64,000 nt of DNA from a phage, in sequence record PZ053912.1. One strand, given 5' to 3'. A model generated the notes under the pieces. The model saw nothing but the letters and a program-made list of their open reading frames with translations, was not told the DNA's origin and made no database searches. Positions 1,666 to 60,219 of this stretch are shown here, piece by piece (positions within the stretch are counted from its first letter, which is position 1; every line of letters begins with the position of its first letter). The position numbers were made by a program, and so were the translations under genes.

Positions 1666-1938
1666 TTAGTTGTTAGAATACATCGCTAAATGACGATAAA
1701 TATTTTCAAAACCTTCATTGAATTCACTAATCAGTGTTTTCTTTTCTTCGGCAGTTAAATTTGTAATTAGTTTTCTAAAAGAATTCTGATTTAGCTGCCG
1801 ACCATCTTTTTTAATTCCAATCTCATTCAAGAATCCGATGAAACTTGCTCGGTCTTCAACAATATCTTCCCTAGAGAATTTAATCAAAATAGAAGCAATA
1901 GTAATAATTTCACGTACGATTTCAATGTCTTTATTCAT
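1666..1938 (-). CDS. asiA: anti-sigma70 factor AsiA
   Basis: 90 aa; MNKDIEIVREIITIASILIKFSREDIVE.. matches T4 AsiA in length and sequence; convergent with t. Confidence 0.9.
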   Translation of the reverse strand: MNKDIEIVREIITIASILIKFSREDIVEDRASFIGFLNEIGIKKDGRQLNQNSFRKLITNLTAEEKKTLISEFNEGFENIYRHLAMYSNN

Positions 1939-1984
1939 AACGTTTTATTCATTCCACTTAGTTGATATGGATATAGTACCATTA

Positions 1985-2200
1985 TCAGTGTTGATTGTAA
2001 ATGGCTTTTTCTACGCTTTTAACGTAATTGATGTAGTCTTCCTGTTCGTACGAGTTTAAGGCTAAGAACAAAGCTAATAGTTCATTATAGACTAAAGCCT
2101 CACGCTCCCGTTCGGCCTCTACTACGTTCTGAAGATTATGACTCATATTGTTCCTTATAACTATCAATGTAGTCCTGTATGTCAAAGAATGACATTTCAT
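1985..2200 (-). CDS. hypothetical small protein (asiA-motA interval; start may be internal ATG at 2146)
   Basis: ORF track; AAGGAAC SD precedes ATG at 2146; position equivalent to T4 asiA.1/arn region. Confidence 0.4.
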   Translation of the reverse strand: MKCHSLTYRTTLIVIRNNMSHNLQNVVEAEREREALVYNELLALFLALNSYEQEDYINYVKSVEKAIYNQH

Positions 2201-3799: not shown

Positions 3800-4432
3800 T
3801 CACAGTACGTTAGTTACAAGGGTAATGATTTCTTTGGACACATTAGGGAAGTCAATGTAAGTATATTTACCACCGATCTTAATCTTAACATCATTTTCAA
3901 GAGAAGTAAACAGCTTTGATTCAGTTTCTGACATGTTGTATGCAAAGATTCTAAGAGAACCATCTCGACGAATTTCTATCTGACGAATACCTAGAACTCG
4001 TTTTGCAAATCGAACTTCCAAGTTACTACGGTTTTCACCGATTTCTTTAACTTCAACTTTATCTTTAATATTTTCAAAAACAAAGTTTGCTAATTCATGC
4101 ATTTCAGGAGTAACTCCACGTGCTTTTCTAGTGTTACGTTTCTGAAGAAGTTCTGGAGCATTTTCTTGGGCAAAGAGGTCTGCAGCTTTTTGGATAATAT
4201 CCATTGCTTCGCCTGTTGCTATAAGTCCATCACCAGATTTTTCGACTAAACCTTTCTTAATCAATACACCAATGTTAGAGTTAACAACCGATGCATTGTA
4301 TTCCGCTTCCAGAGCTTCACGGACATTGGCAGCAGTGGTGAAGTTGTTCTTAATGATATAAACCATTATTGCAGCAGTTTTTTCATTCAGAGCGTTTTCG
4401 GAAGCTTTGATGATGTAAGCAACTTTAGACAT
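3800..4432 (-). CDS. motA: MotA, activator of middle transcription
   Basis: 210 aa; MSKVAYIIKAS..NSNIGVLIKKGLVEKSGDGLI..ENAPELL matches T4 MotA (211 aa); synteny asiA-motA-52. Confidence 0.9.
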   Translation of the reverse strand: MSKVAYIIKASENALNEKTAAIMVYIIKNNFTTAANVREALEAEYNASVVNSNIGVLIKKGLVEKSGDGLIATGEAMDIIQKAADLFAQENAPELLQKRNTRKARGVTPEMHELANFVFENIKDKVEVKEIGENRSNLEVRFAKRVLGIRQIEIRRDGSLRIFAYNMSETESKLFTSLENDVKIKIGGKYTYIDFPNVSKEIITLVTNVL

Positions 4433-4470: not shown

Positions 4471-4500
4471 TATAATATCATGTTTGAAGCACATGTAAAC
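4471..4500 (-). promoter_or_regulatory. early sigma70-type promoter upstream of motA (minus strand GTTTACA-N17-TATTAT)
   Basis: Read from sequence; member of repeated ttgataggtctataat cassette family. Confidence 0.5.
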
Positions 4501-6288: not shown

Positions 6289-6735
6289 TTAGTAACTCTG
6301 CAGAATGAATTTGAAATTATCGGCCAGAAGACGGTTCATTTCAGTGAGTGTTTGATATTCTGATGTATGATTGCGAGTGAATGCCAGAGCCAATTGACCT
6401 TTACCATAACCAGTAGTCAGTGGTTTCATGTTCTTAGCTGCAACAAAGATTACATCATATTCAATATTGTTAGTGCCCATGGTACGGGCTAGTTGCGAAC
6501 GGCCTTGACGAATGTGAGAAAGAATTGCATCCAACCCTTGTTTAGAACGTTGACGTCCTACAAAGAATCGTGCTGCTACTTGTCGCCAGTCAGATGAACC
6601 TTTAACAAAGAAGTAAAAACCTTCACGAGAACGAAACTCTTTAGAAACTTCAGAACCGTATTCGCCATTACGAACTACTGCAACAACTTCACCGCCAACT
6701 GCCAGAAGGTCTTTACGAGTTAAATATTTGGACAT
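6289..6735 (-). CDS. ndd: nucleoid disruption protein Ndd
   Basis: 148 aa; motifs [69 protein letters not shown] resemble T4 Ndd; position between 52 and rIIB. Confidence 0.7.
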
Positions 6736-6779: not shown

Positions 6780-6808
6780 ATTATACTCTGCTCTCAAGAG
6801 TTTGTACA
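6780..6808 (-). promoter_or_regulatory. early promoter upstream of ndd (TTGTACA-N17-TATAAT) within gagagca..tgctctc inverted repeat
   Basis: Read from sequence; 37-bp identical copy at 52037-52073. Confidence 0.5.
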
Positions 6809-6811: not shown

Positions 6812-7012
6812 TTATTCGGCTATATCAGAACGTTCAAAAAGCTCTTCAACAGTTAAACATTCAGTGTCATCTTCAATAAAGAATCGAGTCCAACATGTTG
6901 GGGCGATACAGTTATGAGTTTGTCCGGCGATAGAAGCTACACGAATAAGCTGCTGACCATTATTCAGAACAAATTTTTCACCAATTTCAACATCTTTAAA
7001 AAGCTTAGCCAT
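6812..7012 (-). CDS. hypothetical protein (66 aa)
   Basis: ORF track, ATG start. Confidence 0.45.
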   Translation of the reverse strand: MAKLFKDVEIGEKFVLNNGQQLIRVASIAGQTHNCIAPTCWTRFFIEDDTECLTVEELFERSDIAE

Positions 7013-7040: not shown

Positions 7041-7070
7041 ACTATACCATAATCCTACCTTGTTGTAAAC
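7041..7070 (-). promoter_or_regulatory. early promoter (GTTTACA-N18-TATAGT) in gtagga/tcctac palindrome
   Basis: Read from sequence; family taggactactata also at 7545-7583 and 28721-28758. Confidence 0.45.
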
Positions 7071-7262: not shown

Positions 7263-7526
7263 TCATATCTCAACTTCCGCGAGTTCCATATATCCTTTGT
7301 TGATAACCTCTTTAAGGTCTTTAGAAAGAATAACACTAAAATGGTCGTTCATATGTCCATTAACCAGACGAGTTATTTCGGCTTCAGATGACATATAAGG
7401 CACGTCTGAGTCCCAATGAGATAGACCCAAATGGGTATAAATCATCCCTTCGTCATCTGCAGTGTTGTACATTGAAACAAATTCGCCTGTTACTTTATGT
7501 TTTGCGTAGAAAAATTTAAATTTCAT
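7263..7526 (-). CDS. hypothetical protein (87 aa)
   Basis: ORF track, ATG start. Confidence 0.5.
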   Translation of the reverse strand: MKFKFFYAKHKVTGEFVSMYNTADDEGMIYTHLGLSHWDSDVPYMSSEAEITRLVNGHMNDHFSVILSKDLKEVINKGYMELAEVEI

Positions 7527-7552: not shown

Positions 7553-7582
7553 ACTATATCATAGTCCTACTTAGTTGTAAAC
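7553..7582 (-). promoter_or_regulatory. early promoter (GTTTACA-N17-TATAGT)
   Basis: Read from sequence. Confidence 0.45.
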
Positions 7583-13009: not shown

Positions 13010-13036
13010 AATTAAAATGAAGCTCCCGAAGGAGCT
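13010..13036 (-). terminator. CUUCGG hairpin (agctcccgaaggagct) downstream of HNH gene
   Basis: Read from sequence. Confidence 0.45.
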
Positions 13037-13833
13037 TAGGACATCCAACACATTTTATAACCTTTGCAGGTTCTGTTAGGATTATTTAATGCTTTCAATA
13101 TATTAGAAGACCCTATATCTAAATACTCCCTTAATTCATAAAGATAGTTAAAATCAATAGTTTCACCTGTTTTTACACTTGTGATTCTTATAGGCCTTCT
13201 TTCATATTTAGATTTATACAACTCTCTAGTCTTAGCTTTAGTTTCTTCTGACCTAGGAGTGTATGGTTTAAATCCTTTTGTTTTAAATGTTTCCATTCTT
13301 GATTTAGTTATTTTATCCTGGTGTTCTTTTGTTTTTACAGGTGCTTTTCGCCCATTCTCCCAAGATAACTTGTTGGCCTGTATTATTTTATCTATTGCTT
13401 CTTGCGTATGAGTTTTACCATAAAATGGATTTAATTCGCCTATACGTTGTGAAGCAATATGTGACATTAATTCTCTTGTTGCTTTAGTATGTTTTTTACC
13501 TTTAAATGGGTTGCCATTTTTAGCAATCCATTCTTTCATAAATCTAGAGTGCTCTTTAGAGAATTCTTGTTTAAGCCAATCATAATCTCTAGAATTTCTA
13601 GCTCCCATGTAAAAAGCTCTAATAGCCATAAGCATAGAACGGTTCTTATGAATTTTATAAAGCAATAAATGGGCGATAAAATGCTCTCTAGGGGTCATTT
13701 TAACTAGATTTGATTTATCATTACTCCCACCCATAGATTTAGGCAAAATATGGTGAGTTTCAGTATAATTAGGAATAGTGCTGCGGTTTTTAGCCGCAGC
13801 GATAAGTTTATCATAAATTTTACGGTAATTCAT
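13036..13833 (-). CDS. free-standing HNH homing endonuclease with NUMOD3-like repeats (Mob-type)
   Basis: HHILPKSMGGSNDKSNLVKMTPREHFIAH HNH motif; repeated NPFKGKKHT / NPFYGKTHT motifs; ATG at 13833 overlapping gp39 stop (TAATG); track start 13848 is TTG. Confidence 0.8.
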   Translation of the reverse strand: MNYRKIYDKLIAAAKNRSTIPNYTETHHILPKSMGGSNDKSNLVKMTPREHFIAHLLLYKIHKNRSMLMAIRAFYMGARNSRDYDWLKQEFSKEHSRFMKEWIAKNGNPFKGKKHTKATRELMSHIASQRIGELNPFYGKTHTQEAIDKIIQANKLSWENGRKAPVKTKEHQDKITKSRMETFKTKGFKPYTPRSEETKAKTRELYKSKYERRPIRITSVKTGETIDFNYLYELREYLDIGSSNILKALNNPNRTCKGYKMCWMS

Positions 13834-15653
13834 TATCCTAGCATCCAATCTTTACGGAGTTCAGGGTCGTTACCCATGAGCATTTCAAATAGTTCTTTCC
13901 AATTTTCAGGAAGTTTAACTACGTCGTACACAGGGTTTTGAATCATTTCTTTATATTCATCCCGCTGAAGTGAGCCCAATCCCTTGATGTATCGAATACT
14001 ATGCTTAGGCAGTGTATCTTTAGCTTCTTCATACTCAGCTACAGTATAAAACCATTTTTGAGTTTTGCCAATTTGTGCAATAATTACAGGCGTTTTAACA
14101 AAGCGAATACGTCCTTGTTCAAACAATTCAGGCCAATTACTAAAGAAAGCAAGCAAAGCCGGATAGATACTTCCAAGACCGTCATGATCGGCATCGGTCA
14201 TAATTGCAATATTACGATAGTTCGTATTCTCTGCCTTTTCACCAAGAATAAGACCTGTGATAGCACAGATATCGAAGAGCTCTTTGTTCTTCATCATATC
14301 GGCATATGACATACCCCAGCTATTCATCACCTTACCACGTAATGGGAATCCGCCGTGTAGTTCACGGTCACGAACATCAATGAGATAACCAATTGCCGAA
14401 TCACCTTCTGTTAAAAACAATGTCGTATCTGCATCTTTACCACATTGGTTAGCTTTAATATGCTTATGAACCTTAGCTTTAGTTGCCTTTTTAGCTGCTT
14501 TAGTTTCTGCAGCCTTTTCTGCTGCCAATTTACGAGCTAATGCTGCTTCAACAATAGGCATAATCAAGGCTTCGTTTTTAAGAAGTGCCTGAGCAATTTT
14601 CTTAGCATCTAATTGGATATGATTACGAATATCACCATACGTTGACGTTAAACGTTCTTTAGTCTGAGAATCAAAACGCATGTTGCTCATGTCTCTAATA
14701 AACATCAACATTGTGAGACATTCTTTAACACGAGCTTTAGTGACTTCAATACCCTTATATTTCTTTTTAATACCGGGCAAAAGATGTTCGCAGATATCAT
14801 CCATTACACATTCAACATGATGACCACCATTTTTAGTATGGATGTTATTCACATAAGTTAAATGACGGAAGCCGTCTGGTGATGTTGTGAATGCTATAGA
14901 GACTTTATCATTTTCTTGAATGATGTTATCTTCGCCAAATTGTTTAGCAAATCGTTTAAAATTACCATCAACTTTTTTACCATTAAATGTGAACTTGATA
15001 TCAGGATAAACGACTGCCAATGTTTGAAGTCGGTCTAAAGTAATATCTAAATAAATTTGAGATAAATTATGCTCTTCAAATGAAGAGAAATCAGGAGTGA
15101 AGATTACTTTGGTGCCTTTACCTTTAGATTTCTTAGAAGACCATGATTTGTTTTCCATTCCGTTTGAACAGTTAACAGTGATTTCATTTTCGCCATCTGA
15201 CGTGATGCCTGTAAACAACGTAGAGAAGATATTAGTTAAACTACTCCCGACGCCGTTCATACCACCAGTCTTGCGTTCAGAGTCATCACCAAAATTACCA
15301 CCAGCCTTTGGAATAGTCCAGGCTGCTACAGGCCCAGGAATTTGTTCACCTGTTTGGTCGGTGACCATTGCTTGAGGAATACCACGTCCGTTATCTTCCA
15401 CCGAAACTTGATTATTTTTAATTTGCACATCAATTTTATTTGCAAACTTAAATGATGTACGAATAGCTTCATCAACCGAGTTGTCAATAATCTCATCGAT
15501 TAATTTAATCAGACCAGGAACATATTCAACTTGTTGATATTTACCAAACAAAAAACGCTCGTGGGCTTCTTTGGCCGAAGAACCAATATACATGCCACTG
15601 CGTTTCTTAATATGTTCTACATCTGACAATACCTTAATTTCATTTTTAATCAT
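13833..15653 (-). CDS. 39: DNA topoisomerase II large (ATPase, GyrB-like) subunit gp39, uninterrupted 606 aa form
   Basis: MIKNEIKVLSDVEHIKKRSGMYIGS..LIDEIIDNSVDEAIR GHKL ATPase; 606 aa equals T4 gp39+gp60 fused, so no separate gene 60. Confidence 0.9.
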   Translation of the reverse strand: MIKNEIKVLSDVEHIKKRSGMYIGSSAKEAHERFLFGKYQQVEYVPGLIKLIDEIIDNSVDEAIRTSFKFANKIDVQIKNNQVSVEDNGRGIPQAMVTDQTGEQIPGPVAAWTIPKAGGNFGDDSERKTGGMNGVGSSLTNIFSTLFTGITSDGENEITVNCSNGMENKSWSSKKSKGKGTKVIFTPDFSSFEEHNLSQIYLDITLDRLQTLAVVYPDIKFTFNGKKVDGNFKRFAKQFGEDNIIQENDKVSIAFTTSPDGFRHLTYVNNIHTKNGGHHVECVMDDICEHLLPGIKKKYKGIEVTKARVKECLTMLMFIRDMSNMRFDSQTKERLTSTYGDIRNHIQLDAKKIAQALLKNEALIMPIVEAALARKLAAEKAAETKAAKKATKAKVHKHIKANQCGKDADTTLFLTEGDSAIGYLIDVRDRELHGGFPLRGKVMNSWGMSYADMMKNKELFDICAITGLILGEKAENTNYRNIAIMTDADHDGLGSIYPALLAFFSNWPELFEQGRIRFVKTPVIIAQIGKTQKWFYTVAEYEEAKDTLPKHSIRYIKGLGSLQRDEYKEMIQNPVYDVVKLPENWKELFEMLMGNDPELRKDWMLG

Positions 15654-16326: not shown

Positions 16327-16737
16327 TTATTCCTTAAAATGTGCTTTCAACATTTGATACAAAGACCATGCCTGGTCGTTATTTTCGATAGTAATCGTCA
16401 TCACCGGAAATTCAGACAATTCGTCAAGATCACCAGAATCTTGCTCTTCGGACGCTAGATATGGATTTTCAACTTCGTCAAAGAACTCTGCTTCATTCGT
16501 GGAGAGCCAGATAAAGTTTTCATCAAGGATATCACCGCCTGTTGCGTATCCAACCGTGCCAGTAGATGTCACAATTTTAGTAGGACGACCAAGATGGTCA
16601 ACATCTAATACTTTAAATGGTTCCATGCCAAGCCGTCGTGCATAAATCCCATTATCAGTGTGGTCTTTAATAAACTCTTCTTGGGCACGTTTATCTATAA
16701 ATTGGTACCATGAGTTAACGCGGAATTTATTAGCCAT
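16327..16737 (-). CDS. hypothetical acidic protein
   Basis: ORF track trimmed to ATG at 16737 (TAATG overlap with upstream gene). Confidence 0.45.
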
Positions 16738-16964
16738 TAGTAAGTTTCCTTCCAATAAGTTGTACCGTTTTCAGTGATTTCACGGAAGATACCATAGATA
16801 GGCATTTCATCGCCGAGTTTTTCGTAAACGTAAACCACTTCGGTGTAGCATAAAAATTCGGTCCAGTTTTTCTGTACAACAACTAAATCAGGATTAAACA
16901 GAACATCTTCAAACTCATCGATGTTTGAATCAGTAGTTACGTTTTTAATGATTTGACGTTTCAT
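16737..16964 (-). CDS. hypothetical protein (75 aa from ATG 16964)
   Basis: AGGAG SD before ATG at 16964; track N-terminal extension would run through the promoter. Confidence 0.45.
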
Positions 16965-16993
16965 AATATTCTCCTCTTGTTTTGATAAGTCTA

Positions 16994-17018
16994 TAGTATC
17001 ATAGACCATAGTTGTTGT
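16994..17018 (-). promoter_or_regulatory. early promoter (TGTACA-N17-TACTAT)
   Basis: Read from sequence. Confidence 0.4.
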
Positions 17019-17021
17019 ACA

Positions 17022-17546
17022 TCATTTTAGCAAAATAAAATCAACTTGTTCTGCCAATGAACGTCTAAACATTAATTGACAACTTCCGAGGATGAAATCA
17101 GGTGCTTCATAGACCGCGATGTAGTATCCTTTAGCTTTCAAGAGTTCAACATCCACCTGGTCATCAAACCATGCATAAACCGCGCCAACGCTTTCAAATC
17201 CAAAATAGAACCCTTGAGCCCAATCTTCACTCAATTCAAATGTGTACTCAATTCTATGGTATCTTAAGATATTTTGTTCAAGAAGTTTGTCTTCATTTAC
17301 TGTAGGACGATTAGGGACATTATAGTTGTCGCCGTGATGGTAGAAGTTACCTGAGAGTATTCCATGCTTATCAAGGAACTCCCATGTTTCTTCAGAGTTG
17401 TCAGTGCCAGACCAACCGTAAGGTGAGCGAGGTTCTTTATTCCAAGAGGTTTCCCAAATTCTGACGGCTTTACCGTCTTTGATAGCAATTCCTGGTAATG
17501 ATTCACGTTGAGTACAAAAACTACGTTCTACGCGGTAAACTAACAT
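17022..17546 (-). CDS. hypothetical protein (174 aa)
   Basis: ORF track; ATG with AGGAG SD. Confidence 0.5.
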   Translation of the reverse strand: MLVYRVERSFCTQRESLPGIAIKDGKAVRIWETSWNKEPRSPYGWSGTDNSEETWEFLDKHGILSGNFYHHGDNYNVPNRPTVNEDKLLEQNILRYHRIEYTFELSEDWAQGFYFGFESVGAVYAWFDDQVDVELLKAKGYYIAVYEAPDFILGSCQLMFRRSLAEQVDFILLK

Positions 17547-17552: not shown

Positions 17553-17601
17553 CTCCTCTGGTTGATATGGTTATAATATCAAAACCAGAGGAGAAGTAAA
17601 C
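17553..17601 (-). promoter_or_regulatory. early promoter (GTTTAC-N17-TATTAT) with -10 enclosed by perfect 11-bp inverted repeat ctcctctggtt / aaccagaggag
   Basis: Read from sequence. Confidence 0.5.
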
Positions 17602-18034: not shown

Positions 18035-18490
18035 TTAAGCTTTACGAGGAGACACATAGCGAGTGATTTCAGATTCTTTAACAACTCGGAAGTCACCTAA
18101 GAATACGATATTGTATAACTTTTCACCATCTTCAACCCATTGGTCACTGATGAAGCCGCACATAATATCAGTTTTGTTTGGATAACCATATTCGTCGATG
18201 AAATCAAATTCTTTATCAGTCCGGAATTCAACGCCTTTGCAAAGGGCCCATTTGAACTGTACATTAGGTTCAGTAGAAGCAAAATGAGCGCTCACATGAG
18301 TTTCCAAGAATTTAGGACTTACGTAAGCGTACTGAGTTTCAGTTTTTCCAGAACTAGGAATGATTCGAACTTTAACTTCTTTAACACGTCCAGTACCATT
18401 AGTACGAAGTCCTACCACTTCAACTAGACGACCTGCAGCTTTAGAACGAGATGCAGACGATACACGCTTAATTTCACCAATAGTAATCAT
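18035..18490 (-). CDS. hypothetical protein, tandem paralog (151 aa from ATG 18490)
   Basis: As above; track start 18553 trimmed to internal ATG. Confidence 0.5.
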   Translation of the reverse strand: MITIGEIKRVSSASRSKAAGRLVEVVGLRTNGTGRVKEVKVRIIPSSGKTETQYAYVSPKFLETHVSAHFASTEPNVQFKWALCKGVEFRTDKEFDFIDEYGYPNKTDIMCGFISDQWVEDGEKLYNIVFLGDFRVVKESEITRYVSPRKA

Positions 18491-18520: not shown

Positions 18521-18550
18521 ATTATACTCCATCCATCCTTGGATGTACAA
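18521..18550 (-). promoter_or_regulatory. early promoter (TTGTACA-N17-TATAAT), attatactccatccatccttgg cassette
   Basis: Read from sequence. Confidence 0.45.
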
Positions 18551-18552: not shown

Positions 18553-19047
18553 TTAATTAAGGATATTAACCACAGCACTACGTGGAACTACACTAAAATC
18601 ACCTGCATGAACAACGTTCAGAAGTTCAACACCGTCTTCAATCCACTGATCAGTTACCCATCCATTTACTGGACCTGCGAACGGACGTCGAATTGAAACA
18701 TATTTACACAACAAATCAGTAGGCTCAATAGGCTTAATCAGAGTACCGTACATACAAGCGATATCCATATCAATACAGATATCTTTAACGGGTTCTACTT
18801 CTTCAATCAACAGTTCAAAGTCGGTGCTTGGAAGGGCGGTAGTAGAAATTGTACCATATGAATTTTTAATTTCTAAGAATAACCAAGGGCCTTCAACTTG
18901 TTTGATGAAGTTAACAATAGTGAAACTATTACCTTGAGTGGCACCTAAAATTTCACAAAACTTTTCATAAGCTCGCACTGAAGCACCGTACCAGTTGATT
19001 TGTTTTTCATCTTTCAGGATGTAAGTAGCCGTTGTATTGATATTCAT
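18553..19047 (-). CDS. hypothetical protein, tandem paralog (164 aa from ATG 19047)
   Basis: C-terminal GWVTDQWIEDGVELLNVVHAGDFSVV; AGGAAA SD; track start 19089 is TTG. Confidence 0.5.
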   Translation of the reverse strand: MNINTTATYILKDEKQINWYGASVRAYEKFCEILGATQGNSFTIVNFIKQVEGPWLFLEIKNSYGTISTTALPSTDFELLIEEVEPVKDICIDMDIACMYGTLIKPIEPTDLLCKYVSIRRPFAGPVNGWVTDQWIEDGVELLNVVHAGDFSVVPRSAVVNILN

Positions 19048-19077
19048 AATGTTTTCCTGTTTGGTTAAGATAGAAAG

Positions 19078-19107
19078 ATTATACTCCAACCATCCTTGGT
19101 TGTAAAC
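19078..19107 (-). promoter_or_regulatory. early promoter (GTTTACA-N17-TATAAT) within 46-bp cassette repeated at 60172-60217
   Basis: Read from sequence. Confidence 0.5.
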
Positions 19108-19112
19108 TGGTT

Positions 19113-21423: not shown

Positions 21424-22170
21424 TTAACCTTTAATCAGTTGGAATAATGATGCGCTAAGTGGTAAGCCACGTTTCAATTTTAATTTACCAATGAAACCAA
21501 TCTTTTCAAAACGTTGCAGACCTTGGATAACTTTATCATATGTATCGAAAAGCGATTCAGCGTCAGTTAATTTAGTTTTAGTTTTCCAGTCAGAGCCTTT
21601 AAGAAGAACGTTGAGTTTAGTAAGTTCATGACCTTCTGCTTGATGTGAGCCATTAATGCGTGCTTTCAAAGCAACAATTCTAAGTTTAGATTCGTTAGAT
21701 AAAGGTTGATTTTTCATCATGTTCGCCATATGCTTAACACGATTTTCACGTTTTGCTCGGATTTTTAAAATAGTACCATAAACCTTTTTAATTTGGGCCC
21801 ATTTCTTCTCGTCGAGATTAAGTTTCTCTACTTTACGGGCAGAAGGATTAGCGATACGTCTTGCAATGGCATCACGTTTTTCAATAAGTTCTTCTAATGT
21901 TAAATCAGAACGAGCCGTGTTATATTTTTTCTTAACTGGGATAACATTACCTTTAATGTAGCCGATATCGTTATTAAAACGTTCTAAGGATAATTTCTCA
22001 CCTTCAACAGAGTTATTGAAAGATTCACCTGAGTAAGCGCAGACCTTTTGATCAAGAATGTTTTTAAGGTAATTAAAATCTAAGTTAAAATCCTTAGAGC
22101 GTCTCTTCGCAGAAGCTCTGGTGTGGTCAAGACGACGATTGATTTTGTTAATTTTATTATTTGATAACAT
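21424..22170 (-). CDS. hypothetical basic protein (size and position compatible with T4 srd)
   Basis: ORF track 248 aa; synteny only. Confidence 0.4.
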   Translation of the reverse strand: MLSNNKINKINRRLDHTRASAKRRSKDFNLDFNYLKNILDQKVCAYSGESFNNSVEGEKLSLERFNNDIGYIKGNVIPVKKKYNTARSDLTLEELIEKRDAIARRIANPSARKVEKLNLDEKKWAQIKKVYGTILKIRAKRENRVKHMANMMKNQPLSNESKLRIVALKARINGSHQAEGHELTKLNVLLKGSDWKTKTKLTDAESLFDTYDKVIQGLQRFEKIGFIGKLKLKRGLPLSASLFQLIKG

Positions 22171-22219: not shown

Positions 22220-22248
22220 ATAATATCATGCCCTCAGGTAGTGTACAC
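22220..22248 (-). promoter_or_regulatory. early promoter (TGTACA-N17-TATTAT), ataggtctataat cassette
   Basis: Read from sequence. Confidence 0.45.
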
Positions 22249-22321: not shown

Positions 22322-22930
22322 TCAGTAACTGACAATAGACAGATTCCAGATTGTATAACGTCCATCCTGAATAATAGAATCTACACGCAGTGTAGTCCCT
22401 ATAGGGAGCATAAATTCACATTCGTCGGATATAAGTCTAGCATTAGACCGTCTTGTCGCTTCAGGGAAAGCTCCATTGAACTCACAAGATGGCGCAGCCA
22501 GAATCATGTTAAGCATATGTTCACGGAAGTTGAAAGCAAATGGTGCATCTTTGATGCAGAACATAGTAAATGTTCCGTAAAAATTATACGAAGCAAAGTT
22601 ACGTGCTACACCGAACACTGGGCTGAAGCTCATTACTCTGTCAAATTTAATAATACTACCAATGCCTTTATCATCGAGTGTGGCCATAGTTTTCTTAGAG
22701 ATTCCACGATACATTGTCTCAGGAACAGAAGACGTCCAATTTCTACGAACAATTGCACTTAAATCTTGTTGGATGCTATCAGGCTTGTTTTCCATACACT
22801 GCCACAGTACACTTTGTTCAATGTCGCTGAATTGACTATCAATTTCGTACTGCAATACATCTTGATATTCGGGGTTTTGAGCACGACGAACCATTTCTTC
22901 AATTTCACATTCATTATACGGCATAAACAT
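22322..22930 (-). CDS. modA: ADP-ribosyltransferase, ModA/ModB family
   Basis: 202 aa; R-S-ExE signature (MYRGIS, SFSP, ECEFMLP); position as T4 modA/modB. Confidence 0.7.
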   Translation of the reverse strand: MFMPYNECEIEEMVRRAQNPEYQDVLQYEIDSQFSDIEQSVLWQCMENKPDSIQQDLSAIVRRNWTSSVPETMYRGISKKTMATLDDKGIGSIIKFDRVMSFSPVFGVARNFASYNFYGTFTMFCIKDAPFAFNFREHMLNMILAAPSCEFNGAFPEATRRSNARLISDECEFMLPIGTTLRVDSIIQDGRYTIWNLSIVSY

Positions 22931-22958: not shown

Positions 22959-22987
22959 ATAGTATCATCGTCAGTAGAGTTTGTACA
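22959..22987 (-). promoter_or_regulatory. early promoter (TGTACA-N17-TACTAT)
   Basis: Read from sequence. Confidence 0.4.
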
Positions 22988-23277
22988 CTAAAAATTCAAC
23001 ATTTTCAAATGAATGATTTTGTTAGGTATTCGCGTTCTTGAAGTTCAGATTGACATGTCATGATAGACCTCCATTTAAAGATAAGCCTATCATAACACGA
23101 GAGGAGGGAATGTAAACTACTTTTTAAGCTTTCCTACTAAAGGTCCATCAGGACCTGGTTGTTCTAACATGAATAATGATGCTTTAAAAAGCAATGCCAA
23201 CCCTTTCACCATTCGATACCATGTCTCAAAGTCTTTTTCCTTGATTTCTAGTAAGAATTTCTCTTTAAATTTCTCTT

Positions 23278-24568: not shown

Positions 24569-24598
24569 ATCTTAACACAGTTTTTAGTGGTTGTAAAC
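24569..24598 (-). promoter_or_regulatory. promoter-like element (GTTTACA-N17-TAAGAT)
   Basis: Read from sequence. Confidence 0.35.
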
Positions 24599-24918: not shown

Positions 24919-25200
24919 TTACAATTTGGCGGCTTGGACTGCTTTATTGGCTTCAGTCATTTTAGCTAGATTTTCAGCAGTAGGATTGGCAATGTATTCG
25001 GCTGTAGCTTGAGCAAAAACATTATGAGTTTCGATTACATTTTTAGCATTTTCAGTATTCATATCAATTTCTTGTTTAGATAAATTTTTTAGTTGATTGG
25101 CTAAGAGTTCTACAAAGATTTCAACATTAGCGTTTTCAATTATAGCATTAATATGCTTCTTACGAGCTTTCTTAAGTTGACGTTTATTTAAACGAGCCAT
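24919..25200 (-). CDS. hypothetical protein (93 aa)
   Basis: ORF track. Confidence 0.45.
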   Translation of the reverse strand: MARLNKRQLKKARKKHINAIIENANVEIFVELLANQLKNLSKQEIDMNTENAKNVIETHNVFAQATAEYIANPTAENLAKMTEANKAVQAAKL

Positions 25201-27753: not shown

Positions 27754-28413
27754 TTAACCTCGATTCATAAATGCATTAAATATTTGGTCATCAACAGAAA
27801 TTTCTAATTCGACTTCAATTGCTTCAGCCTTTTCTTCAGGTGGTAATTCGTATCCACACACTACAATTTTTTCATCGATATCAAAATATACAGAAGCAAT
27901 ATGATTAATGTTATTTTCGGTTAAGTCTAAATCAACATCAACATCTTTTTGACCTACACTTAAAGGATAACTAATACGGGTTATTTTATTATCTTTAACA
28001 AAGAGTCCGCCAACATACTCTGTACTACGTTTGAAGTTTACACGTTTCCGAAATGAAAGATATGATGCATCTTTACCGTGAGCTCGGCTCATAGGACATA
28101 ATGAATAGCTAGAATAAGAGATGTCAAATCCTACGCCTTCAATATGAGCCAACGTGTCATGAGTAAACCAATTATAATCATATGCCAAATCCATTATATT
28201 GTAATATGTGAAAGGCACAGGATTAACATCATATGTTGTACCTTTAAAATCTGCCCAGGCAACGATTTCATTATCTTTAACAATTACAAAAATTACACCA
28301 ATATGGTATCCGTTATTATTTTCATTCGGCGTTATATTATAACATTGTGCATTAGGAAATTTACCATATTTAAATGGCGCGTTTTTGTGCATATAATAAA
28401 TCATATTATTCAC
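27754..28413 (-). CDS. hypothetical protein (219 aa)
   Basis: ORF track. Confidence 0.5.
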   Translation of the reverse strand: MNNMIYYMHKNAPFKYGKFPNAQCYNITPNENNNGYHIGVIFVIVKDNEIVAWADFKGTTYDVNPVPFTYYNIMDLAYDYNWFTHDTLAHIEGVGFDISYSSYSLCPMSRAHGKDASYLSFRKRVNFKRSTEYVGGLFVKDNKITRISYPLSVGQKDVDVDLDLTENNINHIASVYFDIDEKIVVCGYELPPEEKAEAIEVELEISVDDQIFNAFMNRG

Positions 28414-28699
28414 CTGTGATTTCGGTTACGATATCTTTGTTATCGAAATTAGGGTCACAATACAAAACATAATTGTACTGCATGATACCGCCAGACTTAA
28501 GTTGTTCAACAACTTTATTAACCATATTAGGACGGTCTCGTTTAGTGATGTTCATGATATCAGAGAAGATTTGTTGTTCAACATCTTCTTGATTTGCAGT
28601 CATTGACCACTCACAGAGGTCTTTATCATAACCTGCTGTAACTGGAGCTGGTGCACATGATACTGCAAGTAAGATTGCTGCCAATGATAACTTTTTCAT
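28406..28699 (-). CDS. sp: Spackle (Sp) periplasmic superinfection-exclusion protein
   Basis: 97 aa with signal peptide; GYDKDLCEWSMTA..KRDRP..LKSGGIMQYNYVLYCD matches T4 Sp. Confidence 0.8.
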   Translation of the reverse strand: MKKLSLAAILLAVSCAPAPVTAGYDKDLCEWSMTANQEDVEQQIFSDIMNITKRDRPNMVNKVVEQLKSGGIMQYNYVLYCDPNFDNKDIVTEITGE

Positions 28700-28728: not shown

Positions 28729-28758
28729 ACTATACTATAGTCCATCTATAATGTAAAC
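28729..28758 (-). promoter_or_regulatory. early promoter upstream of sp (GTTTACA-N17-TATAGT)
   Basis: Read from sequence. Confidence 0.45.
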
Positions 28759-28762: not shown

Positions 28763-29011
28763 TTATTCTTTTTCGCGAATAATAATTACTTGTTGAGGCT
28801 GCTGAGCAGATTTCTTTTCGGCAACGATAGACCAAATTAAAGTTCCAATCCAACCAACCATCGTCCAGTTAAAGAGTAAAGATACGAAGAAGATTGCTGT
28901 TGTGCTTTTTGTGCCACGAATAAGTGCGATTACCCAAGGCAACATGTAAATGATGATTGAACCAATACCTGCGATTAAAACTGCTACTGAACTAGCTACG
29001 AATAATTCCAT
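28763..29011 (-). CDS. imm: superinfection immunity (Imm-like) inner-membrane protein
   Basis: 82 aa, two TM segments; LPWVIALIRG..AIFFVSLLFNWTMVGWIGTLIWSIV resembles the Imm family core; adjacent to sp rather than between 42 and 43. Confidence 0.5.
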   Translation of the reverse strand: MELFVASSVAVLIAGIGSIIIYMLPWVIALIRGTKSTTAIFFVSLLFNWTMVGWIGTLIWSIVAEKKSAQQPQQVIIIREKE

Positions 29012-29072
29012 GTTAATTTCCTCTTGATTTGTTATGTTTATAGTATCTTGGTTTAACTTTAGTGTAAACCAA

Positions 29073-29441
29073 TTAATTAAATTTGTTTAAACGTTCAATA
29101 CACTGGATGTAGTTATTCGCGATTTGTTTCTGGGTAGGCTCTTTACCAGTTGTTTCAACATAGCGAATGAATGCGATTTCAGTAGCCTGTAAGCAATGTT
29201 CTTTAACGCGCTGTTCTTTTGACATAGCTACAGTATCAGAATCACGATAACGTTGAGCATGAGCATCAGCTTGAATCATTCGATTACCTACAGTAACCGG
29301 GTCTTCCACTTCAACTTTAGGTTGGTTGTACTGTTTAACATTAGGATTGTAAATCAGTTGGCCAACGTTATTAGGGATAAAGCCATGGGCACCACATCCG
29401 GTTAATCCAAATACCATTGCTAAAGCGATTAATTTTTTCAT
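29073..29441 (-). CDS. putative lipoprotein
   Basis: Signal peptide with lipobox LTGC. Confidence 0.55.
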   Translation of the reverse strand: MKKLIALAMVFGLTGCGAHGFIPNNVGQLIYNPNVKQYNQPKVEVEDPVTVGNRMIQADAHAQRYRDSDTVAMSKEQRVKEHCLQATEIAFIRYVETTGKEPTQKQIANNYIQCIERLNKFN

Positions 29442-29501
29442 TTCAATTTCCTCTGTAGTTGATAAAAAGATAGTAACACAGTATGTGGTGCTTGTAAACA
29501 G

Positions 29502-29910: not shown

Positions 29911-30228
29911 TTAGATTTCCTCACAGAACGCCCATTCAGCATGATAAACTGTAGCGCCTTTAGTATCATTCATTTGAACTACATCTACCGGAGAAATTAC
30001 TCGATAGAGACGTGGTTCACCTCCATAAGAGCGTGCTGCTCGTCCTGCATAAATCTTTGCTAAACCGATATCTTCAGTAAAGAATACACGATCCAAGTTT
30101 TTCTTACGTCCTGTTTCAGACAGAACTCCTGTTTCCTCAGGAGGACAAAGCATGTTTTCGATGTTAGCTGAACTACTTGAACCGTGATAAAAAATCTTAA
30201 ATTCTGCTTTACAATCGATGGTTTTCAT
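29911..30228 (-). CDS. hypothetical protein (105 aa)
   Basis: ORF track. Confidence 0.5.
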   Translation of the reverse strand: MKTIDCKAEFKIFYHGSSSSANIENMLCPPEETGVLSETGRKKNLDRVFFTEDIGLAKIYAGRAARSYGGEPRLYRVISPVDVVQMNDTKGATVYHAEWAFCEEI

Positions 30229-30254: not shown

Positions 30255-30283
30255 ATAATAACACAACTACTGGAGAAGTAAAC
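30255..30283 (-). promoter_or_regulatory. early promoter (GTTTAC-N17-TATTAT) flanked by perfect 10-bp inverted repeat ccagtagttg / caactactgg
   Basis: Read from sequence; 27/28-nt match to 62808-62835. Confidence 0.5.
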
Positions 30284-30658
30284 TTAAAAACGTAATTTAG
30301 ATATATCTGCGTTGATTTCGTTTTGGTTTGCGTCGTATGCAATTAAACGAACCGCTTTAGATGGGTCATTCAATGCATAGAAATGATGGAACATTGCTCG
30401 AACGATATCACCATTTACGAGTTCTACCTGGATAGGAGAACCTTTTTCGAGTTGGAAATGTTCATAAGCTTTGATGGTTCGTAGATAATCAAGTTTTTGA
30501 TTTCCAGCTCCAACTATTTGTACGATACGTTTGCCCATGTTTTCCATACGAGATACAATAGTTTTAGGAGCAAGAATAACGTAGGTTGCCAGCGGAGAAA
30601 CTACTTCAACAGTTGTGTTTTCGGTGATTGCAGTAAAAATTGCTTGAGACATATTCAT
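30284..30658 (-). CDS. hypothetical protein (124 aa)
   Basis: ORF track. Confidence 0.5.
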   Translation of the reverse strand: MNMSQAIFTAITENTTVEVVSPLATYVILAPKTIVSRMENMGKRIVQIVGAGNQKLDYLRTIKAYEHFQLEKGSPIQVELVNGDIVRAMFHHFYALNDPSKAVRLIAYDANQNEINADISKLRF

Positions 30659-30687: not shown

Positions 30688-30717
30688 ATCATATCATGCC
30701 TAGAGGAAGATGTAAAC
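30688..30717 (-). promoter_or_regulatory. early promoter (GTTTACA-N17-TATGAT)
   Basis: Read from sequence. Confidence 0.4.
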
Positions 30718-51295: not shown

Positions 51296-51450
51296 AAGTA
51301 CCTCTTAGCTCAATTCATAGGTCTATTATATCATAATATTTAGAGACCTATCTTAAAGCACGAGATACTATCAAAGATACATAACTTTCATAAAGTTGTT
51401 GACTTAAAATTCACCAAACTTTTCTTCGGTTATAGCGATTCAAGATAGTT

Positions 51451-51678
51451 TCATTCTATTTCCTTTGCTGCAAATAAGGCAGCATCCAACGAATCAAATT
51501 GGTCAACGAAATCAATATTCAACGCATCGTCAACTGTAGCATATAACCACCATTGTTTGAATTCGTATTCAAGAATAAATCCAGGACCTTCAATCTGAGG
51601 AAGACCTAGGCTATTTGTACCAACTTCGTAACCAGCTAGACGCAGGTCATTAATCAAAGTTTCTGTTAATACGCTCAT
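51451..51678 (-). CDS. hypothetical protein (75 aa)
   Basis: ORF track. Confidence 0.45.
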   Translation of the reverse strand: MSVLTETLINDLRLAGYEVGTNSLGLPQIEGPGFILEYEFKQWWLYATVDDALNIDFVDQFDSLDAALFAAKEIE

Positions 51679-52007
51679 TTTACCGCCTTAACAATTTTCA
51701 AGTCAGCGAATTTTTTCTTACGTTGATTTTTCATACGACGGATAGTTTTTTCAGAGATTTCATGTTTCTGATAAGCTTTAGATTCAACACCAAATGCAGC
51801 AACGTCAAATTCAGAAAGAATATATTGTACTAGAATTTCGCGAATAGAATTACGTCCAATTTTCTGGTCGTGTTTTTGCATGATTTCATAAAGACGGAAT
51901 TCCCACGCGTCAAGAACTTGAGGAGTAACAATATTGCCGGATTCCAGAAGAGCAACAACTTTATCGAAAGCGAAAGAATTAACTACGTTTTTGATTTTAG
52001 TAGACAT
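51675..52007 (-). CDS. hypothetical protein (110 aa from ATG 52007)
   Basis: GAGGAAAA SD; track start lies within the promoter cassette. Confidence 0.45.
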   Translation of the reverse strand: MSTKIKNVVNSFAFDKVVALLESGNIVTPQVLDAWEFRLYEIMQKHDQKIGRNSIREILVQYILSEFDVAAFGVESKAYQKHEISEKTIRRMKNQRKKKFADLKIVKAVK

Positions 52008-52044: not shown

Positions 52045-52073
52045 ATTATACTCTGCTCTCAAGAGTTTGTACA
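52045..52073 (-). promoter_or_regulatory. early promoter, second copy of the ndd-type cassette (37-bp identity with 6772-6808)
   Basis: Read from sequence. Confidence 0.5.
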
Positions 52074-52313
52074 TTATTTCGTGATAAGATAATGTAAATA
52101 GTTTGCTTGACGAACACTGATATCAACACCCATATCAAAGATACCTTTATAGAACGGGTATTTGTTTTCAGTAGAATCTAGACTAAAAGCCTTTCCACCA
52201 CAACTAACGGTAATAGCATCAGTTAAAGTGTCATATACAAACTTAATAGTTGAGCCATTCACTACGACTTCAAGACGTTTTTTCGATGTAGTAATGTCTA
52301 ATTCTTGTTCCAT
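52074..52313 (-). CDS. hypothetical protein (79 aa)
   Basis: ORF track. Confidence 0.45.
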   Translation of the reverse strand: MEQELDITTSKKRLEVVVNGSTIKFVYDTLTDAITVSCGGKAFSLDSTENKYPFYKGIFDMGVDISVRQANYLHYLITK

Positions 52314-52376
52314 GATATTTTCCTCATTTTAAGACGATAGGAATATAATAACATGTCTTCCTATCGTTGTACATTA

Positions 52377-53036: not shown

Positions 53037-53385
53037 TGCGTTTGATAAAATTCACTTCACTTACTGAAAGGTCTTTAAGACCGATTGATTCTAAACGCTG
53101 AGTAAGCGTCAACATTGGGATATAGTCCCATTGTGTTTTAGACGTTTGATAAGTACGGACGCCATTAGCAATTTCAACATGCAAATCGGAAATGGTAATG
53201 AATATCAGACGTTCGTTGTTTACATTAAGAGTTAGAACAACTTTCTTTGAATCTAAACTAATCATTTTATTTTCCTCTATAGTAGATGGTTTAATCTTAA
53301 CACATCTATTGAGGATGTAAACTGTTTTATGAAAATATTTTCGATTTGAGAGGGGCACAAGGAGATAGTGAAGTGAAGATTCCAA
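53017..53385 (-). CDS. hypothetical protein (122 aa)
   Basis: ORF track. Confidence 0.45.
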   Translation of the reverse strand: MESSLHYLLVPLSNRKYFHKTVYILNRCVKIKPSTIEENKMISLDSKKVVLTLNVNNERLIFITISDLHVEIANGVRTYQTSKTQWDYIPMLTLTQRLESIGLKDLSVSEVNFIKRIVSINL

Positions 53386-58908: not shown

Positions 58909-59213
58909 TATAATGTTCTCTCAAATTTGTGGAAGCATTTACGGCATTTCAATTTCAAGTTATCAGTGGTCCAGTTAACCAGTTGGACTTGGATAGTTCC
59001 ACATTCCGGGCACGGATGTTTTGCTGCCGATTTGGCAGCATTTTCACGTCGTTCAACCATTTTCATTATTTCGTTCCATGCCGGAGGAACGAACTCTTCT
59101 TCACCGTGGATTTTATCTCGCTGAACAAATTCAATCTTTGAACTATCGTCAATAAACTTAACCAAGCCGTGATTAGTGCTCATATCAATATCCTCTAAAA
59201 GACGTAGTTTCAT
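58908..59213 (-). CDS. zinc-ribbon protein (101 aa)
   Basis: CPECG..x..CRKC four-Cys ribbon. Confidence 0.5.
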   Translation of the reverse strand: MKLRLLEDIDMSTNHGLVKFIDDSSKIEFVQRDKIHGEEEFVPPAWNEIMKMVERRENAAKSAAKHPCPECGTIQVQLVNWTTDNLKLKCRKCFHKFERTL

Positions 59214-60157
59214 TATAAAACCTCAATGGCATTTCGTAAACCATCAGCTTTTGCATTCAGAGCTTTTAATGATTTAGTTTGTTCTGCAATCTGGGCTTCG
59301 ACTTCTTTCAGGCGAGATTTGAGATATTCGCGTTCTTCTCTTAAGTTATCAACTTTTTCTGCTTTAGGCTCTTTAATAGGCTTATACTCGTTATGGTTCT
59401 TCAACTTAATTTGAATGCGAGAACTGTATAACATTGAACCATTATCTTCGGTTTCATCATACATTTCTACCACGTCCATGATTCTTAACATCATGCGAAG
59501 TTTATAAGACAGCGAACGAATGGTTTTGTTGTGCTTATTAATTTCTTCGGCTTTCATGGTACCGAGATTACGTGAGTAGTAATAAGGAACCTGGATATCA
59601 ATTGATAATGATGCGGTACCATTACCTGTTGGTTTGAACACTGCAGTAACCCAATCTTTAGCATGAACTGTATTTGTACGATCATCGCCACCTGTGAATA
59701 ATTTACGTGAATGTTTAAAAAGCATATTCACTTGGTTATTGAATTCACAAGCAAATTTATCAGCAAATTTAGTTTCAGGAATGGTAGATAACCAATCAGC
59801 CAAATGAGTCTTTTTAACATCGTTAATAATAGTAAATTCAACTAAATCAGTTTTAGATGTCACAGATTTAATAAAGCTCGGCTTCATAAAGTTTTTAATG
59901 TTATCACGAGCTACAGTAGAAGATAATAAACGAGAACGTTTGAACCATTGAAGCAGTGTCCCTAATGAATGAGAATATGCATTCTGAGTATCTTTACAGA
60001 TATGATTTTCTTGGCCTGTGTATGTACCAAAATCGCGAAGAATACCACTTACTACAACTCGGTGTGGAACATCAAATCCTAATGAACCAGAAGCACGTTG
60101 GGCATGAACGTTAGCGATAAGACCTGCAAAATAATCAATGTAATGTGAACGTGTCAT
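59213..60157 (-). CDS. hypothetical protein with C-terminal coiled coil (314 aa)
   Basis: ORF track; heptad-like C-terminus EREYLKSRLKEVEAQIAEQTKSLKALNAKADGLRNAIEVL. Confidence 0.55.
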   Translation of the reverse strand: MTRSHYIDYFAGLIANVHAQRASGSLGFDVPHRVVVSGILRDFGTYTGQENHICKDTQNAYSHSLGTLLQWFKRSRLLSSTVARDNIKNFMKPSFIKSVTSKTDLVEFTIINDVKKTHLADWLSTIPETKFADKFACEFNNQVNMLFKHSRKLFTGGDDRTNTVHAKDWVTAVFKPTGNGTASLSIDIQVPYYYSRNLGTMKAEEINKHNKTIRSLSYKLRMMLRIMDVVEMYDETEDNGSMLYSSRIQIKLKNHNEYKPIKEPKAEKVDNLREEREYLKSRLKEVEAQIAEQTKSLKALNAKADGLRNAIEVL

Positions 60158-60215: not shown

Positions 60216-60219
60216 TGAT

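Follow-up and report, generated by a model that had tools for sequence, protein, structure and literature searches.

Why a phage genome should carry the same 46-nt sequence at two distant loci is the question raised by positions 19064-19109 of sequence record PZ053912.1, of which a stretch of 64,000 nt (hereafter the window) was analysed. The original prediction assigned this sequence to one of four families (A to D) of near-identical promoter cassettes and suggested that such dispersed direct repeats could co-regulate gene sets and provide homology for the shuffling or deletion of modules. At 97-98% identity, the window matches phages of Mosigvirus (the RB69 group of T4-type coliphages), and its source is assigned on this similarity to Mosigvirus as an RB69-like T4-type phage. 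Nearly all genes of the window lie on the minus strand; their order begins with tail-fibre and holin genes, asiA, motA, rIIB/rIIA, gene 39, motB, dexA, dda, mod and soc and continues with 56, 61, 41, uvsX, 43, 45, 46/47, 55, nrdD, 49 and the nrdC.x genes.

Repeat families and predicted early promoters

String checks found the family C 46-mer to be exact at 19064-19109 and 60172-60217, as had been claimed, with no match in 100 dinucleotide shuffles; the similarity extends to 49 of 50 positions when 19064-19113 is compared with 60172-60221. The shorter copies attributed to this family share with it a 27-nt core, ATTATACTCCAWCCATCCTTGGWTGTA, which occurs four times (at 18521, 19078, 60186 and 61182), with none expected. 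The family D 37-mer is likewise exact at 6772 and 52037, and the repeat reaches 56 nt at 88% identity. The family A 27-mer recurs without mismatch at 30237 and 62806, so that the second copy, previously placed at 62808, had been misplaced by 2 nt; the relatives proposed at 4461 and 22211 were recovered by a repeat finder. In family B, the sites at 7545 and 28721 share an exact 14-mer, from which the copy listed at 7033 differs by one mismatch. Every copy has the direct orientation, and none of the exact two-copy repeats (the 46-mer, the 37-mer and the 27-mer) is expected by chance. The original prediction would have been refuted by counting errors; string checks and the repeat finder gave the same grouping.

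Tandem gene duplication was ruled out as the source of the repeats, given that nrdC.3, nrdC.5, nrdC.6 and the motB.1-like protein are mutually dissimilar. Because the family C copies precede unrelated genes, the cassette was not duplicated together with its gene. Subsets of cassettes would rather derive from one another through duplication or exchange.

When read on the minus strand, every family has the same layout, G-T(T/G)TACA, a 16-17 nt spacer, TA(T/C)(A/T)(A/G)T, a leader, an SD sequence and ATG. This agrees with the T4-type early promoter, defined by a -35 element GTTTAC(A/T), a spacer of 16-18 bp and a -10 hexamer TAnnnT that approaches TATAAT. A strict motif, T[TG]TAC[AT]-N16/17-TA[TC][AT][AG]T, matched 22 sites on the minus strand and one on the plus strand, against a shuffle mean of 0.48. 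Several positions outside the search pattern are conserved as well: A at about -41 (position -5 relative to the hexamer) in 19 of the 22 sites, with A in the majority at four neighbouring positions; G at -36 in 15 of 22; and C.TATC just after the -10 hexamer in 16-21 of 22. A UP-like A-rich element is thus present around -40 to -44. A minus-strand start codon provided with an SD sequence is found 25-45 nt beyond each site in the direction of transcription. Furthermore, all 22 cassettes coincide, with base-for-base mapping of positional orthologues, with early promoters predicted for RB69 by Nolan et al. (2006; PMC1524935, additional file 3), who listed 58 sites with coordinates and a logo. The window cassettes thus correspond to 22 of those 58 sites and display the same extended consensus (A-rich -40s, GTTTAC, C-rich before the start); four weaker sites of that list also fall inside the window. 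Repeat families and recombination at promoters were not analysed in that study, and the terms 'stem-loop' and 'inverted repeat' are absent from its text.

The cassettes face orthologues of T4 early genes, including asiA, motA, ndd, cef, motB.2, motB, srd, mod, sp, imm and nrdC.x, among others. Their positions cluster at 2.0-7.6, 17.0-23.1, 28.7-30.7, 52.0-52.4 and 60.2-62.9 kb, which are the variable early regions, and the strict motif detected no cassettes in the window at 7.6-17 kb or at 30.8-52 kb, the latter interval holding the replication genes 41 to 55. A generic sigma-70 scan of this AT-rich genome revealed no enrichment (59, 73 and 62 sites versus 65, 71 and 72 expected from shuffles), so the two hexamers alone carry no weight; only the T4-specific extended motif discriminates. 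The T4 RefSeq record was searched for promoter features, and none is annotated there.

The four families are therefore subgroups, defined by a common spacer and leader, of one homogeneous class of 22 minus-strand sites. By motif, distance to the start codon and RB69 orthology, the proposal that each repeat is a promoter holds in a more specific form: the repeats are predicted to be sigma-70-dependent early promoters of T4 type in an RB69-like phage, their activity and timing being taken from consensus and orthology. If so, the suggested co-regulation of the downstream genes would follow. The repeated unit would comprise the promoter, the 5' leader, the SD sequence and the start codon, about 70-90 nt in all, in front of a minus-strand early gene (Table 1). 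The cassette P62824, which is identical to P30255 from the -10 hexamer to the SD sequence and differs from it in the spacer, looks like a chimera.

Table 1. Predicted early-promoter cassettes and associated features of the window
Feature	Position	Strand	Remarks
asiA promoter cassette (-35 to -10)	1973..2001	-	strict motif; RB69 Pe:160217; asiA 1666..1938
P4472, family A cassette upstream of motA (3800..4432)	4472..4499	-	strict motif, RB69 mapping
TTCG-tetraloop terminator-like hairpin preceding P4472	4527-4544		
Family D cassette, ndd (6289..6735)	6780..6808	-	8-bp dyad GAGAGCA/TGCTCTC straddling -10
Family B cassette, ndd.1 (6812..7012)	7041..7069	-	dyad TAGGATTA/TAGTCCTA across TATAGT -10; z -2.9
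Family B cassette, ORF 7263..7526	7553..7581	-	8-bp dyad TAGGACTA/TAGTCCTA straddling -10; z -2.3
P16993, cef (16737..16964) cassette	16993..17021	-	dyad GGTCTAT/ATAGAC over -10
P17573, motB.2 (17022..17546) cassette	17573..17600	-	12-13 bp stem, spacer with own SD; z -6.5
P18521, diverged family C cassette, motB-like gene (18035..18490)	18521..18549	-	spacer hairpin CATCCA-AGGA-TGGATG
Family C cassette (reported site 19064-19109), motB.1-like gene (18553..19047)	19078..19106	-	spacer hairpin CAACCA-AGGA-TGGTTG
Family A relative, srd (21424..22170)	22220..22247	-	strict motif, RB69 mapping
Cassette of mod ADP-ribosyltransferase gene (22322..22930)	22959..22987	-	strict motif, RB69 mapping
Orphaned cassette	23089..23116	-	second mod gene downstream has lost 508 nt from its interior in this genome
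Family B cassette, sp (28406..28699)	28729..28757	-	strict motif, RB69 mapping
imm (28763..29011) cassette	29040..29068	-	strict motif, RB69 mapping
imm.1 (29073..29441) cassette	29470..29498	-	variable segment 29509-29727 starts 11-29 nt upstream of -35
P30255, family A cassette, ORF 29911..30228	30255..30282	-	13-bp stem, spacer with own SD; z -5.1
P30688, ORF 30284..30658 cassette	30688..30716	-	TTCG-tetraloop hairpin adjoins -35 upstream; spacer partly complementary to SD
Cassette-like element upstream of gene 55	51296..51345	-	no -35 hexamer; TGCTTTAA Mot-box-like; dyad ATAGGTCT/AGACCTAT around TATAAT
P52045, family D cassette, 55.2 homologue (51675..52007)	52045..52073	-	strict motif, RB69 mapping
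P52345, ORF 52074..52313 cassette	52345..52373	-	10-bp dyad of CGATAGGAAG/CTTCCTATCG type around -10; z -2.6
Cargo module between two cassettes (79-aa ORF and one promoter)	52075..52366	-	absent from phage F27
P53294, weaker early promoter, TTTACA-N16-TAAGAT	53294..53321	-	Nolan Pe:43945; spacer complementary to own SD
P60186, family C cassette (second 46-mer copy 60172-60217), nrdC.3 (59213..60157)	60186..60214	-	strict motif, RB69 mapping
Cargo module nrdC.5 (60220..61155, DUF7235) between two family C cassettes	60215..61181	-	absent from F27
P61182, family C cassette upstream of nrdC.5	61182..61210	-	strict motif, RB69 mapping
P62824, family A cassette, nrdC.8 (62269..62796)	62824..62851	-	dyad AGGTCTAT/ATAGACCT formed by spacer
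P24569, weaker early promoter	24569..24597	-	directly downstream of terminator hairpin 24612-24633

Dyads within the cassettes and their predicted effect on translation

Stems were folded with RNAfold, with shuffles for comparison, and three designs were recognized. In the first, seen in all four copies of family C, the spacer contains a 6-bp hairpin whose loop is AGGA. In the second, arms of 6-10 bp straddle the -10 hexamer (families B and D, P16993, P52345 and P62824). The third consists of 12-13 bp stems in which the spacer is paired to the cassette's own SD sequence, as in P17573 (motB.2) and P30255 and, more weakly, in P30688 and P53294. In 11 of the 22 cassettes, the spacer and the downstream segment of the same cassette form a perfect stem of 6 bp or more; about a third to a half of the cassettes are without a convincing dyad. 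In a partner-swap control, which preserves composition and consensus, the longest perfect spacer-downstream stem averaged 6.14 with the own partner versus 4.43 with swapped partners, and none of 5000 permutations reached the observed value. The same test on T4 promoters gave 2 of 5000.

Compensatory changes were detected in P30255 of O157 typing phage 3 (O157tp3; A:T to G:C), in P52045 of RB69 and JK42 (C:G to A:T), and between P18521 and the other family C copies (A:T to T:A). All three designs are also present in T4, with different stem sequences. The T4 homologue of family D (7186-7214) has the stem GGGACC/GGTCCC as opposed to GAGAGC/GCTCTC in the window, the AGGA-loop hairpin of T4 is CCACA/TGTGG and is shifted by 4 nt, and two TATAGT dyads of T4 are one compensatory pair apart. 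The T4 motB.2 orthologue at 8189 has the same design as P17573, and SD-pairing stems are found at T4 motB.2, nrdC.8 and 166778. It is the pairing, not the particular sequence, that appears to be conserved, and about half of the cassettes are likely to carry a selected dyad. A scan of IMG/VR for diverse family D promoters, intended for covariation, gave no matches with a strict pattern; the 61 loci matched by a relaxed pattern are all unrelated sigma-70 promoters, none with a dyad straddling the -10 hexamer, and were used as a negative control. Folding of sense and antisense strands, including G:U counts, showed no asymmetry (p = 0.69); because the two strands fold equally, RNA hairpins and DNA cruciforms are not separable computationally.

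One way to account for the dyads is as terminators or attenuators of upstream genes, which would make the cassette a terminator-promoter composite. This was the original proposal for the promoter-early stem-loops (PeSLs) described in RB49 and phi1 (Arbiol et al. 2010, PMC2839356), one of which, in RB49, cut downstream lacZ about as much as rrnB T1. Consistent with such a role, every hairpin in the window lies just downstream of the preceding stop codon, and three cassettes (P4472, P24569 and P30688) have a GC-rich TTCG-tetraloop hairpin directly upstream. However, the dyads inside the cassettes are AT-rich and of 6-8 bp, and no T-run follows any of them on the transcribed strand, so they are not classical intrinsic terminators. 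The terminator scanner called none of them on that strand, yet it found the canonical terminators of the genome, which are separate GC-rich TTCG-tetraloop hairpins (e.g., 8396-8411, 15703-15718, 24612-24633 and 49802-49821). The long stems of P17573 and P30255 end in the SD sequence, for which translational masking is the better fit. We therefore regard termination or attenuation as a possible but doubtful general function; for the shorter dyads, sequence evidence in the window for the attenuator or insulator role proposed in PMC2839356 is weak.

Translational masking would arise from the position of the promoter inside the dyad, with the hairpin forming only in read-through RNA that arrives from upstream and being absent from RNA made at the cassette's own promoter. 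Since transcription is expected to start about 7 nt after the -10 hexamer, the own transcript would be without the 5' arm. The predicted stabilities agree with this arrangement. The read-through RNA of P17573 folds at -23.9 kcal/mol with the SD sequence paired, against -0.8 for its own transcript, and the corresponding values for P30255 are -25.0 kcal/mol, again with the SD sequence paired, and 0.0. In four cassettes (P17573, P30255, P30688 and P53294) the hairpin would bury the SD sequence, so that translation would proceed only from the cassette's own early transcript. For the remaining cassettes, attenuation or insulation of upstream transcripts by the hairpin is probable, though this step is less certain.

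There is a precedent in T4, where genes e, soc, 49 and I-TevI have a late promoter inside a helix that sequesters the SD sequence (Uzan and Miller 2010, PMC3014915). Upstream transcripts of these genes hold the SD sequence in the helix, the promoter lies within its 5' strand or loop, and the own transcript, being without the inhibitory arm, is translated. The same geometry is predicted at P17573, P30255, P30688 and P53294. In the T4 genes, however, the embedded promoter is the late promoter (TATAAATA) and expression is delayed, whereas the promoters embedded in the window cassettes are of early type and none is the late promoter, and the expected effect is the confinement of translation to the early period. 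By analogy, the cassettes would work like the hairpin-gated T4 family while standing outside its described set. We tentatively suggest, as something that may well prove wrong, that dyads at early promoters are a general T-even gating device, acting either through spacer-SD pairing or through a hairpin across the -10 hexamer, by which genes could be translated only from their own early transcript and would fall silent in later read-through RNA, and that the same palindromes might raise local recombination above the level predicted from repeat length.

Recombination between cassettes

The original prediction proposed alignment with related phages to see whether breakpoints coincide with cassette copies, and the outcome of this test is in its favour. 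Ten relatives were compared with the window (RB69, PhAPEC2, LF82-4, 348Ecol098PP, AV112, O157 typing phage 3, JK36, JK42, F27 and the more distant T4), yielding about 20 distinct indels. Six of these are insertions of homing-endonuclease genes (HEGs) or introns, among them an HNH/NUMOD3 ORF (13036..13848) present only in the window. Four independent indels among the 14 non-HEG ones have both ends inside cassettes, with the crossover within shared sequence. Phage F27 lacks 60213-61181 (nrdC.5, DUF7235), the crossover having occurred in the 27-nt core common to P61182 and P60186; the resulting chimera combines the TGTACA -35 hexamer from the upstream copy with the leader from the downstream one. 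The same phage lacks 52075-52366 (a 79-aa ORF), with a crossover at the -35 regions of P52345 and P52045. In 348Ecol098PP, 30239-30653 (a 124-aa ORF) is missing through a crossover in the SD regions of P30688 and P30255, which fused the P30688 cassette to the next gene. Finally, an additional 71-aa ORF separates motA from gene 52 in LF82-4, and the stretch 4424-4509 is duplicated around it; the flanking copies comprise about 80 nt of the P4472 cassette, from the -35 hexamer to the third codon.

Against an expectation of 3.9% per event, under a null model of random gene junctions (about 112, an approximate count), 4 of 14 corresponds to a binomial p of 1.6e-3. In another two or three events (29509-29527, 53242-53276), a cassette holds only one of the two ends; the junction at 53242-53276 lies at the SD/ATG of P53294. 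The remaining 7-8 of the 14 are away from cassettes, either within genes or at other short repeats at gene boundaries, such as GAGAATATTTTAAATGA. The cassettes were accordingly rejected as the cause of all indels, six being HEG or intron insertions and several others lying at different repeats or inside genes. They are one recombination substrate among several.

The junction without nrdC.5 is found in one piece in 21 database records, all of which may stem from a single event, and of the roughly 150 Mosigvirus records about 77 contain the motA-side ORF. From their presence in multiple records, both the loss of nrdC.5 and the motA-side ORF represent standing polymorphisms. The direction of each indel, loss or gain, is the one favoured by parsimony.

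Occasional crossover between cassettes is expected because they are direct repeats of 12-80 nt in phages with efficient homologous recombination; in T4, recombination at short homologies is known to be efficient (PMC9391042). Such a crossover would delete or insert the intervening gene or genes and leave one chimeric promoter, which should still be functional. The outcome of recombination is shown by comparative sequence; promoter activity and hairpin function are inferred. The crossover positions vary within the cassette, which fits homologous recombination at short repeats and not a site-specific system. As a whole, we consider it highly probable that the repeats are RB69-like early promoters whose dyads gate or insulate read-through RNA and between which homologous recombination occurs.

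The cassettes could instead be active mobile elements, with a dedicated recombinase or a structure-specific nuclease that recognises the stem-loop and, as in an integron, excises or integrates gene cassettes in the form of mini-circles. Inverse PCR has revealed PeSL mini-circles in RB49 and phi1, for which a factor binding the stem-loop was put forward (Arbiol et al. 2010, PMC2839356); in the window, the dyads appear to be under selection, and single-gene modules bounded by cassettes are present or absent across the population. Yet each of the four crossovers occurred at a sub-site of its own (the spacer core, the -35 region, the SD region and anywhere within about 80 nt), as expected of homology and without a fixed cleavage site, and the stems differ between families and offer no common recognition sequence. 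Moreover, T4-type phages recombine short homologies efficiently without a special system, and other indels in the same genomes used repeats outside the cassettes. Active mobility is thus unlikely, and homologous recombination between the cassettes is preferred.

We also consider it distinctly improbable that a dimeric DNA-binding protein, such as a factor that shuts off early promoters, uses the dyads as palindromic operators. Overlap with the -10 hexamer would be an ideal position for a repressor, arms resembling TAGGnCTA...TAGnCCTA are common to seven cassettes, equal folding of sense and antisense strands is expected of DNA palindromes, and the mechanism of early-promoter shut-off has been described as not completely understood. 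On the other hand, the arms are wholly different between families (GAGAGCA, TAGGACTA, GATAGGAA, TCTCCAGTAGTTG), vary from 6 to 13 bp in length and vary in position relative to the -10 hexamer; the AGGA-loop hairpin of T4 is displaced; and the complementary double substitutions keep the pairing but not the sequence of a half-site. Convergence on a strong-promoter consensus, with indels coinciding merely through shared confinement to intergenic regions, is already disfavoured and very improbable: RNA polymerase does constrain the -35, -10 and start regions, and whole-gene indels must end between genes, but the unconstrained spacer and leader are also identical (46/46, 37/37 and 27/27), the null model was limited to gene junctions from the outset, and chimeric promoters with the crossover in an identical core are seen directly.

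Relation to known systems and significance

The reading of the cassettes as sites of homologous recombination is the published PeSL model, encountered here in the RB69 group, so this kind of element is already known. After its description in RB49 and phi1, the model was extended to PST/T4 and nt-1/KVP40 (Comeau et al. 2014, PMC4122927). Like PeSLs, the window cassettes recur as composites of an AT-rich region upstream, an early promoter of sigma-70 type, a stem-loop, an SD sequence and ATG; the stem-loop lies between -35 and -10, over -10, or upstream; the units are gathered in variable early regions; and indels of close relatives are bounded by two units, with a variable crossover point. The differences are that the window belongs to another branch, the RB69 group, with RB69 mentioned in neither PeSL paper; that the -35 hexamer is T(T/G)TACA, as in T4, as opposed to TTGACA in RB49; and that the stems are AT-rich and family-specific, in contrast to the GGGG...CCCC stems of RB49. 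The pairing of the spacer with the own SD sequence in four cassettes is undiscussed in the PeSL papers, and the word 'translation' is absent from Arbiol et al. (2010). Our literature search found no earlier description of PeSLs for the RB69 group.

Laboratory deletions and amplifications in T4 use microhomologies of 2-10 bp at arbitrary places (Srikant et al. 2022, PMC9391042). There, as here, short direct repeats recombine in non-essential early regions, with gene loss and gain as the result. The natural Mosigvirus events differ in using regulatory repeats of 12-80 nt and in that a functional promoter is predicted to remain. The additions made here are small, namely the support that compensatory changes lend to the dyads and the subset of cassettes with an early promoter inside an SD-sequestering hairpin, and a T4 specialist would find nothing surprising in any of these results.

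For this group, to which many phages isolated for therapeutic use belong, the PeSL view of modular evolution is widened by natural cases, at base resolution, of single accessory genes removed or added by regulatory repeats (nrdC.5, the 55.x ORF, ORF041c and the motA-side ORF). In phage engineering and annotation, the cassettes predict sites of spontaneous deletions and indicate which small genes should be dispensable as modules. Compensatory changes within the dyads, together with early promoters placed inside SD-sequestering hairpins, provide a modest lead on the insulation of early expression. If the gating of translation is true, it would contribute to the unexplained sharp shut-off of early protein synthesis and would account for the retention of a private promoter by every small early gene.

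Insertions and deletions relative to other phages

Gene 39 and the homologue of RB69ORF003c are separated by a 270-aa ORF that carries HNH and NUMOD3 motifs (window 13036-13848, minus strand). It is a homing-endonuclease-type insertion of ~790 bp that is missing from RB69, LF82-4, 348Ecol098PP, AV112 and O157 typing phage 3. In the relatives, the region of genes 46, 47, nrdD and 49 has differing homing-endonuclease or intron insertions at five positions (see table); none of these insertions is found in the window. Gene 49.3 is missing from the window (58226-58259, set against 9360-9730 of JK36, L004). In the relatives this gene is flanked by two near-identical stop/start overlaps (CGAGAATATTTTAAATGA); short repeats at gene boundaries thus include a second type that acts as a deletion substrate.

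Compared with all relatives, the second mod (ADP-ribosyltransferase) paralogue has a 508-nt internal deletion and is reduced to ~80 nt (window 22988-23088), leaving the early promoter cassette P23089 without a gene. The sequence separating soc from gene 56 (window 24917-25237) is also variable: a 93-aa ORF (24919..25200) with no Pfam match occupies it in the window, O157 typing phage 3 has a different insert of 300 nt, and the corresponding stretch is 14-38 nt long in LF82-4, 348Ecol098PP and AV112.

Terminator-like hairpins and the gene 55 element

Terminator-like, GC-rich hairpins with TTCG tetraloops are found directly upstream of the predicted early promoters P4472, P24569 and P30688, with which they form terminator-promoter composites; canonical terminators of the same style occur elsewhere in the window.

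Coordinates of insertions, hairpins, terminators and T4 cassettes
Feature	Sequence	Coordinates	Adjoining promoter
Homing-endonuclease/intron insertion	L003	16211-17026	
Homing-endonuclease/intron insertion	L008	2458-3174	
Homing-endonuclease/intron insertion	L009	48322-49182	
Homing-endonuclease/intron insertion	L005	7606-8427	
Homing-endonuclease/intron insertion	L006	6592-7637	
TTCG-tetraloop hairpin	window	4527-4544	P4472
TTCG-tetraloop hairpin	window	24612-24633	P24569
TTCG-tetraloop hairpin	window	about 30722-30740	P30688
Further canonical terminators	window	8396-8411; 13020-13037; 15703-15718; 49802-49821	
T4 cassette family	T4 (L011, L076, L077)	27051; 55355; 163644; 167057	

A cassette-like element upstream of gene 55 (window 51296-51345) lacks the -35 hexamer. 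It contains a Mot-box-like TGCTTTAA and a ATAGGTCT/AGACCTAT dyad surrounding TATAAT, and may therefore be a middle-promoter counterpart ('PmSL'). The ORF just upstream of it (window 51373) has a 184-nt internal deletion compared with RB69, JK36, JK42 and LF82-4.

Variation within and among cassette families

The family A cassettes P62824 (62824-62851) and P30255 (30255-30282) carry a common stretch, TATTATAGACCTATCAACTACTGGAG, that extends from the -10 to the Shine-Dalgarno sequence (SD). Their spacers differ, so that P62824 has a dyad straddling the -10 in place of the SD-pairing arm of P30255. In the T4 orthologue of P62824 (T4 53914), the spacer pairs with the SD instead; orthologous promoters thus bear differing dyad solutions.

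The 3-4 nt right after the -10 of P60186, a family C cassette, differ among phages (window 60172-60185). The window, RB69 and JK36 have CTTT there, identical to family member P19078, and LF82-4, 348Ecol098PP and JK42 have AAAT or GAAT, nearer to another member, P61182. This patchy distribution across relatives suggests that family C copies have undergone gene conversion with one another.

T4 has a family of its own, comprising four near-identical ~85-nt cassettes (ttcacaaaacNgTTTACA...gtggTACTATacaactatcaactactgatacggatttggagaa) at distant loci. Its existence indicates that dispersed near-identical early-promoter cassettes are general in T-even phages.
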